64,000 nucleotides of DNA from Shigella phage ESh28: sequence record ON528738. One strand, 5' to 3'. This document shows, one piece after another, positions 5,875 through 11,104 of this stretch; positions within the stretch are counted from its first letter, which is position 1, and the number at the start of each line of letters is the position of its first letter. The notes beneath the pieces were generated by a model that was not told the DNA's origin, searched no databases, and saw nothing but the letters and a program-made list of their open reading frames with translations. The position numbers were made by a program, and so were the translations under genes.

Positions 5875-5908
5875 TGGTTTACAAGTTGGCAAGGTTATGG
5901 TATAGTAA
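5875..5908 (+). promoter_or_regulatory. T4-type early promoter
   Basis: gtttac 5877-5882, tggtatagt -10 at 5898-5906. Confidence 0.55.
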
Positions 5909-6493: not shown

Positions 6494-7027
6494 ATGAAAC
6501 GATTAGTATTAGAAGTTAGTCCACTTTTTGGTGAATTGGCTATAGAAAAAGTAAATAATATGTATCGTTTGACGCAAGAAGACGATATGATGTATTTTAC
6601 ACCTAGTGAAATTATTCATTTAACCCAAATTGAATATCCTTATACTGATAAAATAGTAAGCATCAATGATGAGCACAAAATTCATTTTTATTCTTCATGC
6701 CCAGGATTTAATATTAAAAGTGAGTCAATGTGTTTATCAGTTATCCATTGGGATAGTTTTATAGCTAAGATTAAATATTTTTATTATTCTAATGAAAGAA
6801 AACATAGTTTAAAATGGCTCAAAAATTGCAATGCTATTATTACTAACGCTTGCAATCAGAATGATGAAACTCTTTTAAATGTATCAAAATGTTATGAAGA
6901 TGGAGATGTCTTAACTATTCGTCAAATTGACGATTTTCGATCGCATATTGTCACATTTACCAAAGACGAAGCTATTGCGCTAAAGACTTATCTTGATTCT
7001 GTCATTCCAACTATGATTTCAAAGTGA
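6494..7027 (+). CDS. hypothetical protein, 177 aa (paralog of next gene)
   Basis: Track ORF; C-terminal tail DEAIALKTYLDSVIPTMISK resembles tail of the following ORF. Confidence 0.55.
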   Translation: MKRLVLEVSPLFGELAIEKVNNMYRLTQEDDMMYFTPSEIIHLTQIEYPYTDKIVSINDEHKIHFYSSCPGFNIKSESMCLSVIHWDSFIAKIKYFYYSNERKHSLKWLKNCNAIITNACNQNDETLLNVSKCYEDGDVLTIRQIDDFRSHIVTFTKDEAIALKTYLDSVIPTMISK

Positions 7028-7033
7028 GGAAAT

Positions 7034-7555
7034 ATGTTTATTTCAAGTGAAAGTGGTTTAATTCGTGCTGAATTTAAAAATGACATCTTTCTTATTCAAG
7101 GAGATGATATTATTAAAATGAGTTATGACGAAATCAAGAAAATTTGTCATGCTCTTGAAAGTCATGGAAAAGTGAACGCTGTTATTGATATTGGCGATTT
7201 ATGGGTGACACTTTATGAAGTATCCGAAGGATTTAATATTGAAGATGAAAACAACATCTTAGCTATTGATAAAAGAAGTGATTTGTTTGATGTATTAAAA
7301 GTTTATGAACAGTCAAACGGTGGAAGAAAAGCTGTATTGATTTATCAAAAACCACATTCATGTGGAACTGCTTCAATCATTTCAAATATTGATGATGAAA
7401 CTGATACTTATATGTGTGTTTTAAAAGCTGGTGGTGACCGTCATCCGGATTTTATTTCTATTCGTCAAAACAATGGAGAAATTTCATTATCAAAATCAGA
7501 AGCTGAAGCGATGATTAAGTATTTAACAACCGTTACGCCTTCAATGAAAGGATAG
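7034..7555 (+). CDS. hypothetical protein, 173 aa (paralog of previous gene)
   Basis: Track ORF; C-terminal SEAEAMIKYLTTVTPSMKG resembles tail of upstream ORF. Confidence 0.55.
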   Translation: MFISSESGLIRAEFKNDIFLIQGDDIIKMSYDEIKKICHALESHGKVNAVIDIGDLWVTLYEVSEGFNIEDENNILAIDKRSDLFDVLKVYEQSNGGRKAVLIYQKPHSCGTASIISNIDDETDTYMCVLKAGGDRHPDFISIRQNNGEISLSKSEAEAMIKYLTTVTPSMKG

Positions 7556-7557
7556 TT

Positions 7558-8019
7558 ATGATTATTAATGAAAACTCTTGGCACTATAAATTATTCAAAT
7601 TGTTTAACGATGAATGGCAACGACCTAAGACACTATGCGCATACTTTTGGTCTATTGTTATCCCTACATTTTTCGTTTCTATTTTTGGGTGTGCTATACT
7701 CGTAGGGTTAACAATTATTTGTGCAGAAAGCCTACAACGTTGGCTTATTTTCGGTAGTTTATGGACTTTGCTTCCATCAGCATTTATACTTGCGCTTTTG
7801 GTTGTTTTACTTATTATCGGTTCATTTGTTATTCCTGCACAACTGCGTGAAAAATATAAAGATTATAAATGGAAAAAGGACTATGCTTTACACGTAGAAA
7901 ATATTGATAGAGCGTATAAAGGTTTACCTCCTATTCAACCCAAGAAATCGATTATCGTCGAATTTTTAAAAGCTCGTAAAGCTAAAGTATGTCCTGTTAT
8001 TGAATATAAGGCTGAATGA
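7558..8019 (+). CDS. integral membrane protein, 153 aa
   Basis: Track ORF; several long hydrophobic segments. Confidence 0.55.
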   Translation: MIINENSWHYKLFKLFNDEWQRPKTLCAYFWSIVIPTFFVSIFGCAILVGLTIICAESLQRWLIFGSLWTLLPSAFILALLVVLLIIGSFVIPAQLREKYKDYKWKKDYALHVENIDRAYKGLPPIQPKKSIIVEFLKARKAKVCPVIEYKAE

Positions 8020-9029
8020 TGAAAACAGTAATGAAAAGCTATTTTGGTAGTCATCTTTATGGAACTTCTACCCCAGAATCTGATGTAGATTTTAAAGAAA
8101 TCTTTGTTCCTCCTGCTCGCGATATTCTTATTGGAAATGTTAAAGAGCACATGAGTAAAAATACCAACAACACATCATCTAAAAACACTAAAGATGATAT
8201 TGACCACGAATTGTATAGTCTTAAGTATTTCTTTAAATTAGCAGCAGATGGTGAAACTGTAGCATTGGATATGCTTCACACTCCACCTGAACTAGTGGTT
8301 AAATCTGATTTGCCTGATGTGTGGAAGTTTATTCAAGACAACCGTTCTCGTTTTTATACGACTAACATGAAATCCTATTTAGGATATGTCCGCAAGCAAG
8401 CTTCTAAATATGGTGTCAAGGGTTCTCGTTTGGCTGCATTACGCGATGTATTGAAAGTAGTTAATCAAATCCCTGAGCAATGGGTTGATTACCAAGAAGA
8501 TGGTTCTATTAAGCAGCGTCGTACTAAAGTTGAAGATATTAAGCATCGTCTTCCAGAAAACGAATTCTGTGAATGGGTGTTCCATAATCATGAGAAAACA
8601 GGCCCACAAACGTTCTACACTGTGTTGGGTCGTAAATATCAGACAACGCTTTCTCTTATTGAGCTTAAGCAGTCACTGAACAAATTAGATGCTGAATATG
8701 GTGAACGTGCTCGTAAGGCCGAAGCCAATGAAGGTATTGACTGGAAAGCTCTGAGTCATGCTTGCCGTGGTGGACTCCAACTATTGGAAATTTACAAAAC
8801 TGGTGACTTGGTTTATCCACTCAAAGATGCTCCTTTTATTCTCGACGTGAAGTTGGGTAAGCATCCATTTAAAACGGTTCAAGAGTTTTTGGAAGATGTG
8901 GTCGATCAAGTAGAAGCAGCATCTACTGAAGCTTCTAAGAACGGTATGCAACAAAAAGTAGACATGAGTTTCTGGGATGACTTCCTTGAGAAGGTCTATC
9001 TTGAAAACCACCGAAATTATTATAAATGA
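8016..9029 (+). CDS. Pol-beta-superfamily nucleotidyltransferase-like protein, 337 aa
   Basis: N-terminal GSHLYGTSTPESDVD fits the G[GS]x(9-13)Dx[DE] NTase active-site motif; helical C-terminal region. Confidence 0.55.
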   Translation: MMKTVMKSYFGSHLYGTSTPESDVDFKEIFVPPARDILIGNVKEHMSKNTNNTSSKNTKDDIDHELYSLKYFFKLAADGETVALDMLHTPPELVVKSDLPDVWKFIQDNRSRFYTTNMKSYLGYVRKQASKYGVKGSRLAALRDVLKVVNQIPEQWVDYQEDGSIKQRRTKVEDIKHRLPENEFCEWVFHNHEKTGPQTFYTVLGRKYQTTLSLIELKQSLNKLDAEYGERARKAEANEGIDWKALSHACRGGLQLLEIYKTGDLVYPLKDAPFILDVKLGKHPFKTVQEFLEDVVDQVEAASTEASKNGMQQKVDMSFWDDFLEKVYLENHRNYYK

Positions 9030-9030
9030 T

Positions 9031-9056
9031 AGGGAGCCTTCGGGCTCCCTTTTTTA
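9031..9056 (+). terminator. rho-independent terminator
   Basis: gggagcc-ttcg-ggctccc followed by ttttttatttc. Confidence 0.75.
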
Positions 9057-9077
9057 TTTCAAAAATTTTTCACAAAG

Positions 9078-9111
9078 TTGTTTACAAGCATAAAGCTTTA
9101 TGGTACTATAC
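9078..9111 (+). promoter_or_regulatory. T4-type early promoter with A/T-rich upstream tract
   Basis: gtttac 9080-9085, tggtactat -10 9101-9109, conserved leader caactatcaact. Confidence 0.6.
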
Positions 9112-9143
9112 AACTATCAACTGATACGGATTTGGAGAATAAA

Positions 9144-10112
9144 ATGAAAACTGTAACTATCAATAAGGGTATCTACTTCGGTAAAGAAATCTCTGGAACT
9201 TTTGAGCTCTTAGGCGAATGGTTCCCAGATAATGCTCCGGTAGATGCACAAGGAGATGGTAAAGTTTTTGTTGAAATTGACGGTAAGCGTCGCGGTGTTT
9301 GGGTTTACAAATCAGACATTTCATATGATGGTGTAAAAGTTGAAGAAGTTAAAGAATCATATGAAGATATGAAAACCCGCATTAATAAAAGATTTAATGT
9401 TATGGGAATGATGACGAATGGTATTATTAACGGAAACATTCGTTCATTAATTATCTCTGGTGCGGCGGGTATTGGTAAAACGTATTCTTTAGATAAAGCT
9501 TTAAATAAAGCAAATGATATTGGATACATTGAATATAAAAGCATTAACGGTAAAATCTCTGGTATCGGTCTTTATGAACAGCTTTGGAATAATCGTGAAG
9601 AGAATTCTGTCCTTTTGATTGATGATGTGGATGTTTTCTCTGATATGGACATTCTTAATCTTCTAAAAGCTGCTCTGGACACTGGAGAGACCCGTAAAGT
9701 CTGCTGGAGCACTGCATCTTCTTACTTAGAAGAAAAAGGCATTGAGCGTGAGTTTGAATTTAAAGGAACGATTGTTTTTATCACAAACGTTGACATTGAC
9801 CGCGAATTAGACCGTGGTACTAAACTTGCTCCGCATTTACAAGCATTAGTGTCCCGCTCAGTTTATTTGGATTTGGGTGTTCACACTAATGAAGAAATTA
9901 TGGTCAGGGTTGAAGATGTTATTCTTTCAACTGACATGATGCAAAAGCGCGGTCTTTCTGATGAAGAAACTTATAAAGCATTATCATGGATGAAAGTCAA
10001 TGTTAATCGTTTACGCAATGTTTCACTGCGTACTGCACTTTATCTTGCTGACTTTATTATGACCGACAAAAATGGTTGGGAAGAAATTGCTGAGGTTACT
10101 CTTCTGAAATAA
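9144..10112 (+). CDS. AAA+ family ATPase, 322 aa
   Basis: Track ORF 9078..10112 trimmed to ATG after ttggagaat RBS; Walker A GAAGIGKT and Walker B LLIDDVD. Confidence 0.65.
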   Translation: MKTVTINKGIYFGKEISGTFELLGEWFPDNAPVDAQGDGKVFVEIDGKRRGVWVYKSDISYDGVKVEEVKESYEDMKTRINKRFNVMGMMTNGIINGNIRSLIISGAAGIGKTYSLDKALNKANDIGYIEYKSINGKISGIGLYEQLWNNREENSVLLIDDVDVFSDMDILNLLKAALDTGETRKVCWSTASSYLEEKGIEREFEFKGTIVFITNVDIDRELDRGTKLAPHLQALVSRSVYLDLGVHTNEEIMVRVEDVILSTDMMQKRGLSDEETYKALSWMKVNVNRLRNVSLRTALYLADFIMTDKNGWEEIAEVTLLK

Positions 10113-10213
10113 TTCATAAGAGGCCTTCTATGACAAAAAGGCAGTTCAGAAATAGATTATATGGACTGCCATCAAAAAGATGACTAGAATTAAACTGGTA
10201 AATGGAGGTAATG

Positions 10214-10516
10214 ATGTTATACTCAAAGGCTCGTGAAATTTATGAAACTAAAATTAAAGACGCGGTTCATCAGTTCGCAACGACAATGCGTTGGACAAAT
10301 GACTGGGAATACTCCAAGAATCATAAGAAGCCCTTGGTGACAAGAAAGGCTCATATATTAGTGTTAATAGACCGTGAGCAGATTAAAGCCCGAGAAGCCC
10401 TCCAGAATCATAAAAAGGCTGCCTTTGAATGGTTTATGGATAACACTGCTCCTGAGACTAAGAAAGCAGTGAGCGCTTGGTTCAGTGGAAAAAATTGTGA
10501 AAGAAGTTTCTTTTAG
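10214..10516 (+). CDS. hypothetical protein, about 100 aa
   Basis: Track ORF 10202..10516; start moved to ATG downstream of ggagg. Confidence 0.45.
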   Translation: MLYSKAREIYETKIKDAVHQFATTMRWTNDWEYSKNHKKPLVTRKAHILVLIDREQIKAREALQNHKKAAFEWFMDNTAPETKKAVSAWFSGKNCERSFF

Positions 10517-10550
10517 TTGTTTACAAGACCGTTCCTCTGTGGTACTATAC
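10517..10550 (+). promoter_or_regulatory. T4-type early promoter (cassette repeated at 62184..62217)
   Basis: gtttac 10519-10524, tggtactat 10540-10548; about 65 bp near-identical to 62183..62247. Confidence 0.6.
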
Positions 10551-10576
10551 AACTATCAACTACGGAGGAACAGAAA

Positions 10577-11104
10577 ATGAATGCTAAAGATATTTTCAAC
10601 TTGGTAAACTACAATGATGGTAAATTTAAATCTGAAGCTCAAAGCAAGTTCTTTAATGATGTCTCAATCGGTGGTGAAATCACGGTTGATGGAGGACAAA
10701 TTTACAAATCCCGTTGGAATTGGATCGTTATTATCGATGAGATTGGTATTGTAGAAATTTACAAGAATACGAATAAAAATCGTACATTACACTGGTCTCG
10801 TGATACTAACGAACAGTACAAAAAGGATAAAGCATCTAAATTATCTCGTGTAACTCAAGAAGATATTGAGTTCATCAAGAAAGATATTTTGATGTATGAT
10901 AACTTAATTGCTGAAGAGCAAGCTGTTATTGATAAATTTGACGAGATTAAAGCTTCTCGTGAAATTCCTGATTTTATGAAAGAATCAGTAAATGAACGAT
11001 ACACTCTCATTTCAGAGCGTATTGAAACTTACAAAAAGCAAAGAGCTGAACGCCAAAATACTCTTCGGAAGTTTGAAGAACGGTTAAAGACGGTACTCGC
11101 ATAA
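10577..11104 (+). CDS. hypothetical protein, 175 aa
   Basis: Track ORF 10517..11104 trimmed to ATG following acggagga RBS. Confidence 0.55.
   Translation: MNAKDIFNLVNYNDGKFKSEAQSKFFNDVSIGGEITVDGGQIYKSRWNWIVIIDEIGIVEIYKNTNKNRTLHWSRDTNEQYKKDKASKLSRVTQEDIEFIKKDILMYDNLIAEEQAVIDKFDEIKASREIPDFMKESVNERYTLISERIETYKKQRAERQNTLRKFEERLKTVLA

Follow-up and report, generated by a model that had tools for sequence, protein, structure and literature searches.

NrdC.11 of Shigella phage ESh28, an RlaP-family nucleotidyltransferase with a proposed role in tRNA repair, and its neighbour NrdC.10, an orphan AAA+ ATPase

Two successive genes on the plus strand of the window, the 64,000-nt stretch of Shigella phage ESh28 DNA analysed here (ON528738), raise the question of what a phage nucleotidyltransferase (NTase) acts on and whether the AAA+ ATPase encoded just after it is its partner. 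The window is from a Tequatrovirus and is 97-98% identical to Tequatrovirus genomes. By comparison with phage T4, the ORF at 8016..9029 is nrdC.11 (98.5% amino acid identity across the full length; "38.9 kDa protein" in UniProt, PHROG 388) and the ORF at 9144..10112 is nrdC.10 (99.7%), both names being those of the T4 annotation. As in T4, nrdC.11 sits 5' of nrdC.10 in the tk-nrdC region, whereas the gene upstream of nrdC.11 is the homing endonuclease gene mobD in T4 and a 153-aa membrane-protein gene (7558..8019) in ESh28. An earlier sequence-only reading of this DNA left the two genes unrecognised, yet nrdC.11 had been assigned to the COG3541 NTases and nrdC.10 to the AAA ATPases in 2006 (PMC1524935), and a 2025 preprint names T4 NrdC.11 as RlaP, in cluster 5 of the PF10127 sequence-similarity network (PMC12776372). 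Both are ordinary genes already known in the literature: homologs of the NTase occur in 1517 and those of the ATPase in 1311 of 50,697 phage records, and a library of 1.84 billion proteins yields 3436 cluster representatives for the NTase (E <= 1e-3). The features described below far exceed chance. Our preferred reading, to which we give a probability of about 0.6, is that these are two independent early genes, NrdC.11 being a template-independent RNA 3'-NTase for tRNA repair and NrdC.10 an orphan AAA+ ATPase that is not its partner.

The transcription signals separate the two genes. The start of nrdC.11 (8016..9029, 337 aa) overlaps the stop codon of the upstream gene in the sequence ATGA (8016..8019); an alternative start one codon later, at 8019, is that of the T4 annotation and gives 336 aa. 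Further upstream, an early-promoter-like site on the plus strand (5877..5907; TTTACA-17-TATAGT with an extended TG, 10/12 matches) differs at 3 positions from the early-promoter cassette of the window, and no strong-hairpin terminator occurs between this site and 9031; transcription of the unit ending with nrdC.11 probably starts here. This unit is closed by an intrinsic terminator (9031..9056, plus strand), in which an 8-bp G+C-rich hairpin (9031..9050) is followed by TTTTTTATTT, with a folding energy of -17.7 kcal/mol (z = -3.6 against shuffles). A T4-type early promoter at 9080..9110 (plus strand) then drives nrdC.10, as a perfect match to the cassette GTTTACA-N14-TGGTACTATA, which has 13 matches in the window, 12 of them on the plus strand, against 0.28 expected by chance. 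A terminator and early promoter between the genes had been noted from the letters, and both are present; in phage Lutter, a terminator and a promoter are annotated at the equivalent places. The nrdC.10 gene starts with the ATG at 9144, behind GGAG at 9134..9137, and encodes 322 aa. A 344-aa ORF with a TTG start at 9078 reads through the promoter and is an artefact.

Judged by its sequence profile, NrdC.11 is an RlaP-family NTase. The Pfam RlaP model (PF10127; gathering cut-off 23) scores 44.6 bits at E 1.9e-11, over residues 7-135 only (profile positions 23-142 of 249). The same model is matched by 60 of 60 diverse relatives (best 2.2e-19), a precomputed PF10127 assignment is found in all of the 120 close homologs listed, and NrdC.11 matches PHROG 388 at 1.5e-136. 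Similarly, hhalign aligns residues 3-131 with canonical RlaP at a probability of 95% (E 3e-8), and the catalytic residues are in register. The AF2 model has a pLDDT of 94.2, and its best 43 Foldseek matches are all Pol-beta NTases, with probabilities of 0.99-1.0 for the top dozen and about 0.1 further down. The profile match and the fold, the latter from the very structure prediction proposed as a check, bear out the earlier call of a Pol-beta-superfamily NTase at 8016..9029; on the other hand, the families then offered (CD-NTase-, MNT-, Cid1- or CCA-like) were wrong, the family being RlaP. Kanamycin nucleotidyltransferase ANT(4'), whose substrates are small-molecule aminoglycosides, and the NTase-like protein 3c18 share 8-12% identity with NrdC.11 and no family-level sequence match.

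In the NrdC.11 model, the G-S loop follows strand 1 and the D-x-D pair opens strand 2. This motif, G11-S12...D23-x-D25 (8046..8090, plus strand; residues 11-25, GSHLYGTSTPESDVD), comprises a predicted triphosphate-binding loop and two predicted metal-binding carboxylates, and hhalign sets it on the SGS...DSDYD of canonical RlaP. The predicted third catalytic carboxylate, D63 (8202..8204, plus strand), lies on strand E62-68 and is matched to the invariant D72 of canonical RlaP. Among the 60 diverse relatives, G11, S12, G16, S22, D23, D25, D63, Y124 and Y132 are invariant, so the catalytic acidic residues pass the conservation check that had been suggested for them, and conservation at D61 and D85 is 92% or higher. 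The Pol-beta fold, G-S loop, D-x-D and third carboxylate of RlaP are thus all present and conserved.

The Pfam and hhalign matches end at residues 131-135, and the C-terminal half alone aligns with canonical RlaP at a probability of 0.3%. This half contains an insertion found in the T4-type clade only (residues 141-221; 8436..8678, plus strand), absent from canonical RlaPs of 250-270 aa, which consists of a helix end, a five-strand beta-rich subdomain (strands 155-159, 165-169, 185-192, 196-203 and 206-209) and a helix start; the region is retained across the clade with poor conservation. When residues 141-221 are deleted in silico, the alignment reaches the C-terminus and places K244/H248/R251 on K149/Y153/R156 of canonical RlaP, the score being no higher. 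These residues form the invariant basic motif K244-x3-H248-x2-R251 within DWKALSHACR (8745..8768, plus strand), with the same spacing as K149-x3-Y153-x2-R156, and are a candidate RNA or NTP contact. They lie in the helical C-terminal domain (H214-336 of the model), a region anticipated in the earlier note. In general, NrdC.11 and Pseudomonas RlaP (PF10127 cluster 1a) share the Pfam family, the G-S/D-x-D/D set in register and the placing of a helical domain after the NTase domain; the T4 type differs in its network cluster, in being about 70-80 aa longer, in having the beta-rich insertion, and in a C-terminal half with no significant profile alignment to Pseudomonas RlaP. Homology to the characterised RlaPs can be detected no further than the N-terminal 130 residues; the remaining part, which carries the insertion of about 80 aa, could alter substrate choice.

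The genomic context of the T4-type clade points to RNA repair. In five IMG/VR phage loci with NTases about 40% identical, PseT-like and Rnl1-like genes precede the NTase gene on its strand; four further phage loci have RNA-repair neighbours, and phage phiM7 has an RNA ligase gene 3.3 kb upstream of the NTase. In a survey of 112 neighbouring proteins of at least 170 aa within 3.5 kb of the NTase, the families included AAA_33 Pnk-type kinases (5), HD proteins (5), RNA_lig_T4_1 (3), RtcB (2) and RNA_ligase PF09414 (2). In bacteria, the T4-type gene occurs in Pnkp/Hen1/RtcA/Rnl1 operons (five loci serve as examples), and in several cellular RNA-repair loci stop and start codons overlap. These neighbours accompany a minority of loci: an Rnl1- or PseT-like ligase or healing enzyme lies near the gene in only 9 of 79 phage loci, and Pnkp, Hen1, RtcA or Rnl1 in only 12 of 80 cellular loci. 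In addition, a canonical RlaP gene stands directly downstream of the T4-type gene in 19 of the 80 cellular loci and elsewhere in the locus in 2 more. The link to RNA ligases and end-healing enzymes that the T4-type clade shares with Pseudomonas RlaP is a property of the clade and not of the window's own locus: near nrdC.11, no RNA ligase or Pnk gene is found in the ESh28 window or in T4, and the gene here lies outside any rtcBA operon, unlike that of Pseudomonas RlaP.

The same context bears on the proposal that NrdC.11 is a signalling-nucleotide enzyme, either CD-NTase- or cGAS-like or one that modifies or decoys CBASS, Thoeris or Pycsar nucleotides. The generic Pol-beta G-S...D-x-D active site is indeed shared with CD-NTases, and T4 carries other anti-signalling genes. 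However, the relatives of NrdC.11 adjoin RNA ligases, Pnkp, Hen1 and RtcA, not effectors or receptors; its Pfam family is RlaP, and at E <= 0.1 Pfam gave no match to a CD-NTase/SMODS family; the PADLOC models gave 0 matching families; and its nearest structural neighbours include no cGAS or DncV, which gives no ground for placing it with cGAS, DncV, OAS or CdnE. Synthesis or modification of signalling nucleotides, raised in the sequence-only reading, is consequently most improbable.

What that reading had said of RNA ends is its sole functional suggestion to fit, RlaP being a family that adds nucleotides to RNA 3' ends and is tied to RNA repair. PfRlaP and PaRlaP add 1-2 NMP to an RNA 3'-OH without acting on DNA or protein, prefer cleaved-tRNA mimics and Mn2+, act in these mimics on the 5' tRNA half, at its 3' end, in preference to the acceptor end, and rescue aminoacylation of tRNA missing one anticodon-loop nucleotide (PMC12776372). 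RlaP has little NTP specificity in vitro, uses dATP efficiently on RNA primers and, when given total E. coli RNA, labels full-length tRNA and rRNA-sized species as well; its biological role is provisional according to the same authors (PMC12776372).

This chemistry weighs on two further alternatives. Nucleotidylation of a protein, as by MNT/MntA, which AMPylates HEPN RNase toxins, or by GlnE/DrrA, would let NrdC.11 neutralise a host toxin, and a sub-threshold NCBIfam MntA match (E 0.059) does cover the G-S loop. That match amounts to 13.3 bits against a cut-off of 60 over 18 residues, characterised RlaPs leave E. coli proteins unlabelled (PMC12776372), and the context is one of RNA repair with no adjacent HEPN partner gene; MNT/MntA proteins are of about 100-150 aa with a HEPN partner, and NrdC.11 has 337 aa and is encoded between a membrane protein and an AAA+ ATPase. 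We regard a protein target as very unlikely. Synthesis of an oligonucleotide, de novo or protein-primed, is highly improbable as well. Here the model is Hailong HalB (PDB 9dbh), an anti-phage NTase that synthesises oligodeoxyadenylate, and the phage product might, for instance, prevent a DNA-gated host effector from opening. The efficient use of dATP by RlaP on RNA primers (PMC12776372) and the invariant Y124 and Y132 could be read in this way, but RlaP requires an RNA 3'-OH and halts after 1-2 additions (PMC12776372), whereas HalB is a 217-aa tetramer making tyrosine-primed poly-dA. The likeness is at the level of the fold only: HalB has 15% identity to NrdC.11 and no profile match, the family profile finds no HalB in the PDB at E <= 1, and the genomic context of HalB differs from the RNA-repair context of NrdC.11.

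Based on the family chemistry and the clade's neighbours, we infer that NrdC.11 acts in vivo by adding 1-2 nucleotides to broken tRNA, as an extra "healing" step in T4 tRNA repair. The G11-S12 loop would hold the NTP triphosphate, D23, D25 and D63 would coordinate a pair of divalent metal ions, probably Mn2+ by analogy with Pseudomonas RlaP, and the RNA end may be held in a basic and aromatic cleft of the helical domain (Y124, Y132, K131, K135, R138, K244, H248, R251 and K279). The putative pathway is the T4 PseT/Pnk and Rnl1 repair directed against the anticodon nuclease PrrC, and PseT-like and Rnl1-like genes are operon neighbours of NrdC.11 homologs in other phages; the T4 genome encodes RnlA, RnlB and PseT, and in T4-like genomes rnlA and pseT lie about 80 kb from nrdC.11. 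Some host anticodon nucleases, the RloC-type "smart" ribotoxins, not only cut the tRNA but also remove nucleotides at the break, a lesion proposed to defeat T4 repair (PMC2610378), and RlaP has been predicted to restore the nucleotides lost to RloC (PMC7824862). T4 Pnk (PseT) would make the 3'-OH, NrdC.11 would restore 1-2 nucleotides, and finally Rnl1 would seal. One objection is that RlaP discriminates poorly among NTPs in vitro, so that a wrong base would be present in most of the repaired tRNAs; some of the repaired molecules would regain function. A genome-reduced T4 loses the nrdC.11-mobD.3 fragment (PMC9825161); nrdC.11 is therefore dispensable in the laboratory, as expected for a counter-defence gene.

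The family chemistry, addition to an RNA 3'-OH with little NTP specificity, could also serve other purposes at RNA 3' ends, in mending of tRNA 3'-CCA, maturation of phage tRNA or tailing of host or phage transcripts to alter their stability. The labelling of rRNA-sized and full-length tRNA species (PMC12776372) and the lack of linkage to ligase genes in ESh28 and T4 agree with such a role. That RlaP works at the cut end of the 5' tRNA half in preference to the acceptor end (PMC12776372) and that ligases and end-healing enzymes are neighbours across the clade point instead to repair of breaks, and the other 3'-end roles are unlikely.

If NrdC.11 restores the nucleotides excised by RloC, T4 tRNA repair would comprise three steps, heal, refill and seal, and the question posed in 2008, of T4 Pnk/Rnl1 repair against "wobble-excising" nucleases, would be settled. 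The heal-refill-seal idea is already in print, attributed to Burroughs and Aravind 2016 where PMC12776372 and PMC7824862 cite it, and the present finding therefore brings no new concept. Its additions are modest: the RNA-repair association is valid for the T4-type clade specifically, a large insertion distinguishes this clade from the RlaPs that have been characterised, its bacterial members are commonly paired with a canonical RlaP, and the adjacent AAA+ gene appears to be outside the system.

With regard to that gene, nrdC.10 appears to be a neighbour of nrdC.11 and not a partner, and their adjacency reflects synteny local to the Tevenvirinae; the independence of the two genes is supported by the terminator and promoter that separate them and by their independent distributions. 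A two-gene module, with NrdC.10, for instance, remodelling broken tRNA or ribosome-bound RNA or handing it to the NTase, is very unlikely. Among close relatives the pair does hold together: in 23 of 28 IMG/VR loci with an NTase at least 61% identical, NrdC.10 follows the NTase on the same strand after 0.1-2.3 kb, as it does in all 9 loci with NrdC.10 at least 66% identical and in one locus with an NTase 52% identical. Both genes are also driven by early promoters, and the bacterial slot just 3' of the T4-type NTase often holds a partner-like gene, canonical RlaP. However, five loci with NTases 69-82% identical have no NrdC.10 within 10 kb, variable genes are inserted between the two in relatives, with gaps of up to 2.3 kb, and only 1 of 51 loci with an NTase at most 59% identical (the one at 52%) has NrdC.10 within 10 kb. 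None of the NrdC.10 homologs at most 58% identical has an NTase within 8 kb; NrdC.10 is found in jumbo phages, such as Pseudomonas jumbo phage MIJ3; and its neighbours in distant phages show no RNA-repair enrichment, with one RNA ligase among 102 proteins. The pairing implied by the title of the earlier note is thus not supported, the genes being separate in all distant relatives.

The cellular pairing with canonical RlaP allows another reading, which we hold to be very unlikely: the "long" T4-type RlaP would be a distinct subfamily, an obligate partner of canonical RlaP in cells, which the Tevenvirinae use alone or with NrdC.10 as a substitute. Its beta-rich insertion of about 80 aa might then confer a different RNA-end specificity or a partner-binding surface, and long and canonical RlaP might form a heterodimer or make two successive additions that rebuild a two-nucleotide gap. 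The Tevenvirinae are without a canonical RlaP paralog. Were this reading true with NrdC.10 as the partner, nrdC.11-nrdC.10 would be a phage-specific tRNA-rescue module against nucleotide-excising anticodon nucleases.

Taken apart from nrdC.11, NrdC.10 is by its motifs an AAA+ ATPase, predicted to be catalytically competent, of an orphan and essentially phage-only family. The Walker A GAAGIGKT (9459..9482, plus strand) and Walker B LLIDDVD (9612..9632, plus strand) were read from the sequence, and the 322-aa AAA+ ATPase first called on these motifs stands at 9144..10112. Among 33 relatives with 54-89% identity, G106, G109, G111, K112, D160, D161 and N215 are invariant, conserving the Walker A (G106-x4-G111-K112-T113), Walker B (D160-D161) and sensor-1 (N215) set of the AAA+ superfamily; R184, R238, R291 and R296 are invariant too and could supply the arginine finger and sensor 2. 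NrdC.10 matches PHROG 1250, annotated as function unknown, and the named AAA+ families searched (AAA, AAA_14, AAA_22, clamp loader, Hda/DnaA and STAND) give no match above a curated threshold: the Pfam scores remain below the cut-offs (AAA_14, 23.5 against 27; AAA_22, 21.2 against 27; nSTAND3, 20.3 against 27.2; AAA, 16.5 against 21.2), the Hda model scores 14.7 against 194.8, PHROG clamp-loader matches are at 1e-4 only, and the best hit of a PDB profile search is Cdc6 at E 0.16. The AF2 model (pLDDT 89.3) comprises an N-terminal beta domain (1-62), a linker helix (73-95), an alpha-beta-alpha ATPase core with five strands (100-245) and a helical lid (249-320), and Foldseek returns 127 PDB matches at E <= 1e-3, all 50 of those listed being AAA+ or related P-loop ATPases. 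The initiator/clamp-loader and PS1-hairpin ATPases (Cdc6/ORC, RFC, Hda, RuvB, PspF, CbbQ) have the Walker A, Walker B and sensor-1 motifs, the core and the lid in common with NrdC.10, at a Foldseek E of about 1e-5 to 1e-4 and a target-normalised TM of up to 0.57, whereas the N-terminal beta domain is its own.

The open reading frame at 8016..9029 (+ strand, 337 aa; the T4 annotation takes the next codon, a second ATG at 8019, as its start) encodes NrdC.11, and the one after it (ATG at 9144 preceded by GGAG, end at 10112; 322 aa, containing GAAGIGKT and LLIDDVD) encodes NrdC.10. These proteins are 98.5% and 99.7% identical in amino acids to those of T4, whose record names them NrdC.11 and NrdC.10 and describes them as 'conserved hypothetical proteins', and the 3.1 kb surrounding both genes are 97-98% identical to many Tequatrovirus genomes. 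The sequence-only reading had described a nucleotidyltransferase (NTase) ORF with its motif, a terminator, an early promoter and a 322-aa AAA+ ORF; all of these were accurate, and the finding comes down to two long-catalogued T4 genes, real and correctly described.

Pfam assigns NrdC.11 to PF10127 ('RlaP, RNA repair pathway DNA polymerase beta family') with 44.6 bits (gathering score 23) and a match that spans residues 7-135 only, and PHROG 388 ('nucleotidyltransferase') matches the full-length protein at 1.5e-136. Of 1.84 billion cluster representatives searched exhaustively, 3436 are relatives at E ≤ 1e-3, and 826 of these reach E ≤ 1e-30; nearly all of the relatives among the matches listed are 300-360 aa long. 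When 60 relatives with 33-55% identity were aligned, all 60 matched PF10127; 15 positions were invariant (G11, S12, G16, S22, D23, D25, N57, D63, Y124, Y132, K244, H248, R251, P268 and K279), and D61 and D85 were at least 92% conserved. Residues 11-25, read directly from the translation, are GSHLYGTSTPESDVD. In the AlphaFold model built from this alignment (mean pLDDT 94.2), the N-terminal part has the Pol-beta NTase topology of strand 1, a G-S loop with a short helix, and strand 2; D23-x-D25 opens strand 2, and D63 lies on a later strand. The predicted fold and the invariance of the catalytic residues D23, D25 and D63 bear out the earlier claim of a Pol-beta-superfamily active site.

Plain sequence searches of the PDB with NrdC.11 or NrdC.10 gave nothing useful, and profile searches with the two families gave chance-level matches only. 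The idea that NrdC.11 is a signalling-nucleotide enzyme of the CD-NTase kind, also raised from the sequence, found no support: PADLOC and NCBIfam returned nothing above threshold for NrdC.11 or NrdC.10, and the Pfam family is RlaP. Protein AMPylation of the MNT type can draw on a fold-level resemblance and a 13-bit partial match, and on nothing else; the MNT and CD-NTase readings were rejected, as was a HalB-like one. NrdC.11 is very likely (probability about 0.95) a Pol-beta NTase of the RlaP family whose substrate is an RNA 3' end or something closely related.

In 2006, nrdC.11 was assigned to the COG3541 NTases and nrdC.10 to AAA (PMC1524935). [quoted passage not shown] According to a 2021 survey, RlaP is predicted to restore such nucleotides before ligation and is distributed across jumbo phages in parallel with RNA ligases (PMC7824862). 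In a preprint of December 2025, two Pseudomonas RlaPs extend the RNA 3'-OH by one or two NMP (or dNMP), are inactive on DNA and protein, favour Mn2+ and the broken end of a cleaved-tRNA mimic, and can restore aminoacylation of tRNA missing one anticodon-loop nucleotide (PMC12776372). In the RlaP crystal structure from that work, a cleft separates an NTase domain from a helical domain; the authors propose that RlaP is an antidote to 'smart' ribotoxins, e.g., RloC, which cuts tRNA and then excises a nucleotide, and in their sequence-similarity network of PF10127 'T4NrdC.11' is expressly assigned to cluster 5 (PMC12776372). Because this preprint and the earlier papers give both, the identity and proposed function of nrdC.11 are already published: the NTase family, the chemistry and the proposed role, with T4 NrdC.11 named, are in print, as is the AAA+ identity of NrdC.10 since 2006. 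T4 can do without nrdC.11 in laboratory hosts (PMC9825161), as expected for a counter-defence function.

The NrdC.11 family was compared profile to profile with ten canonical RlaPs, the shorter PF10127 proteins (254-277 aa), from bacterial loci. The alignment had a probability of 95% (E 3e-8) over residues 3-131 only, and in its register the G-S motif of NrdC.11 falls on SGS, D23/D25 on DSDYD, D63 on the invariant D72, and D85 on the invariant E94. Relative to canonical RlaP, the T4-type proteins carry an extra element at residues ~141-221, modelled with five short strands, which is present clade-wide and poorly conserved. Removal of this element in silico extended the alignment to the C-terminus and placed K244-x3-H248-x2-R251 on canonical K149-x3-Y153-x2-R156. 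Homology of the two C-terminal domains is likely, though the evidence is suggestive only, because the C-terminal half of the NTase family alone gives no signal against canonical RlaP in hhalign (probability 0.3%) and removing the insertion does not increase the score.

Since the characterised RlaPs fall in another cluster and the Pfam match is limited to the N-terminal third of the protein, the association with RNA ligases was retested on the relatives of NrdC.11. For phages, 79 IMG/VR loci, extending to 10 kb per side if the contig was long enough, were probed by tblastn with T4 RnlA, RnlB and PseT. In phage loci L070, L071 and L074-L076, PseT-like and Rnl1-like genes lie immediately 5' of the NTase on the same strand, and further phage loci with RNA-repair neighbours are L055, L056, L069 and L081. 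Pfam was also run on 112 proteins encoded near the NTase in 32 distant phage loci, and the commonest families included AAA_33 Pnk-type kinase (5), HD (5), NAPRTase (4) and RNA_lig_T4_1 (3), as well as RtcB (2) and RNA_ligase PF09414 (2). The seven ligases seen among these 112 proteins compare with fewer than one expected by chance, by our rough estimate from ~two ligase genes per ~280 in a T4-like genome. In addition, phage phiM7 has an RNA ligase gene 3.3 kb upstream of its NTase.

The cellular set comprised 80 bacterial and archaeal genome loci (L131-L210), some of them on multi-megabase contigs, whose T4-type proteins are full-length and 33-54% identical. In 12 of the 80, the T4-type gene lies near a gene for a ligase or healing enzyme; the classic RNA-repair operons that contain it have orders such as Pnkp, T4-type NTase and canonical RlaP (L188); Pnkp and T4-type NTase (L197 and L209); a kinase-phosphatase-Rnl1 fusion and T4-type NTase (L180); and RtcA, T4-type NTase, canonical RlaP and Hen1 (L165). 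T4 itself encodes RnlA, RnlB and PseT, and its rnlA and pseT are ~80 kb from nrdC.11. The RNA-repair association that defines the family extends to the T4-type clade, though it is absent within the window.

Unexpectedly, 21 of the 80 cellular loci have a canonical RlaP gene in addition to the T4-type one. In 19 of those 21, the canonical RlaP (~255-275 aa) is directly 3' of the T4-type gene on the same strand, abutting or overlapping it (for example, L188:6001-7799, L165:6001-7743 and L149:6001-7727). This suggests that the long and canonical paralogs cooperate in cells; none of the 79 phage loci has the tandem. Among phages, canonical RlaPs were found in 86 records, most of them from Pseudomonas jumbo phages and none from a Tequatrovirus.

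Nicotinamide/nicotinate phosphoribosyltransferase genes (NAPRTase/NAMPT, 4 loci), along with HD-domain and NUDIX genes, are also repeated neighbours, within 3.5 kb, of distant NrdC.11 homologs in phages (L047-L084), a pattern that may represent a NAD-salvage neighbourhood or just shared early-gene clustering.

On what is shown for NrdC.11 (its identity and fold, its family and catalytic residues, and its context across the clade), a mechanism may be proposed. The start codon of nrdC.11 and the stop of the upstream gene share ATGA, so the gene belongs to a longer read unit. Transcription is early, probably from a promoter-like site at 5877..5907, and the unit stops at the terminator at 9031..9050 (an 8-bp G+C-rich hairpin followed by a T-run; -17.7 kcal/mol, z = -3.6). 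Once the protein is made, D23, D25 and D63, together with two metal ions, would transfer an NMP from any NTP onto an RNA 3'-OH. In T4 tRNA repair, Pnk strips the 2',3'-cyclic or 3'-phosphate and phosphorylates the 5' end, and Rnl1 seals the break. NrdC.11 would act after Pnk and before Rnl1, refilling the one or two nucleotides taken by RloC-type nucleases; this substrate, product length and in vivo role are suggested by analogy with the Pseudomonas enzymes and by gene context. We lean towards NrdC.11 being the nucleotide-refilling step in T4 tRNA repair, and the most serious alternative is some other RNA-end function, either CCA-end mending or transcript tailing.

The sequence-only reading further implied a pairing of the NTase with the ATPase. 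In most close relatives, NrdC.10 is indeed found 0.1-2.3 kb 3' of the NTase, as in a functional two-gene unit. However, the strong terminator is followed by a separate T4 early promoter at 9080..9110, a perfect GTTTACA-N14-TGGTACTATA; this cassette is a genuine promoter class, matched at 13 places in the window (12 on the + strand) where shuffles predict 0.28. Moreover, the spacer in relatives contains variable additional genes, and NrdC.10 is missing within 10 kb in five loci whose NTases are 69-82% identical. The two genes part further with distance: among NTases of ≤59% identity, NrdC.10 is present in one of 51 loci (L040), the NTase is absent within 8 kb of every NrdC.10 that is ≤58% identical, and the NTase has other neighbours in Cr30, KVP40-like PVA23 and phiM7. 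A functional unit is not supported, and the two-gene module was rejected; because of the terminator and promoter, the variable spacers and the separate distributions, the adjacency is best explained as inherited Tevenvirinae gene order. In Caulobacter phage Cr30, the next gene downstream of the NTase is not an NrdC.10 homolog.

NrdC.10 belongs to PHROG 1250 ('unknown function'), and no Pfam AAA model matches it at gathering score. Among 33 relatives with 54-89% identity, Walker A K112, Walker B D160 and D161, sensor-1 N215, and the arginines R184, R238, R291 and R296 are invariant. In the AlphaFold model (pLDDT 89.3), a small beta domain at the N-terminus (aa 1-62) is followed by a long helix, an AAA+ core of five strands and a helical lid. 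Foldseek gave 127 PDB matches at E ≤ 1e-3, and the 50 of these that were listed are all AAA+ or related ATPases, including ORC/Cdc6, RFC, Hda, RuvB, NSF, PspF, CbbQ, dynein and E1, with TM-scores of ~0.3-0.57 and no outstanding family among the matches listed; a PDB-sequence profile search returned only Cdc6 (E 0.16). Homologs occur in 1311 phage records, including the jumbo phages Pseudomonas phage MIJ3 and Yersinia phage fHe-Yen9-04, and in jumbo phages the match often begins past the N-terminal domain. Guilt by association gave no meaningful recurrence among 102 neighbour proteins from ~20 distant phage loci (adenylosuccinate synthetase 3, topoisomerase 2, GP88 2). We conclude that NrdC.10 is probably an active ATPase and belongs to an orphan AAA+ family restricted to phages.

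Distant NrdC.10 homologs (L102, L105-L114, H107 and H109; e.g., those of fHe-Yen9-04 and Escherichia virus TH47) align only from ~residue 62-80 and appear to be without the T4-type N-terminal beta domain. Loci L119-L130 were rejected as sources of orthologs, with weak partial matches of 26-34% identity over the ATPase core, mostly in ~500-aa proteins.

In GenBank records of T4-like phages, the label 'thioredoxin' is widespread on homologs of NrdC.4 to NrdC.11, many records labelling all nrdC.x so, and one NrdC.11 homolog carries the label 'HNH homing endonuclease'. Pfam gives no thioredoxin family match for NrdC.11 or NrdC.10, and these labels are an annotation artefact from the gene-name prefix or from neighbours, not homology.

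The gene 5' of nrdC.11 is the homing endonuclease mobD in T4 and a 153-aa predicted membrane protein here (7558..8019, PHROG 944), a mobile-element presence/absence polymorphism at the nrdC.11 boundary. Also upstream, the ORFs 6494..7027 (177 aa) and 7034..7555 (173 aa) are diverged tandem paralogs (27% identity, E 9e-9); Lutter has hypothetical-protein ORFs of the same lengths and order, and T4 has MobD.1 and mobD at this position. Next after nrdC.10 is nrdC.9 (10202..10516, 104 aa; PHROG 1931), which matches Pfam DUF7203 at 1.7e-15. The TTG-started extensions in the mechanical ORF list at 9078..9143 ('MFTSIKLYGTIQLST...') and 10517..10580 ('MFTRPFLCGTIQLST...') are translated copies of the early-promoter cassette and are noncoding.
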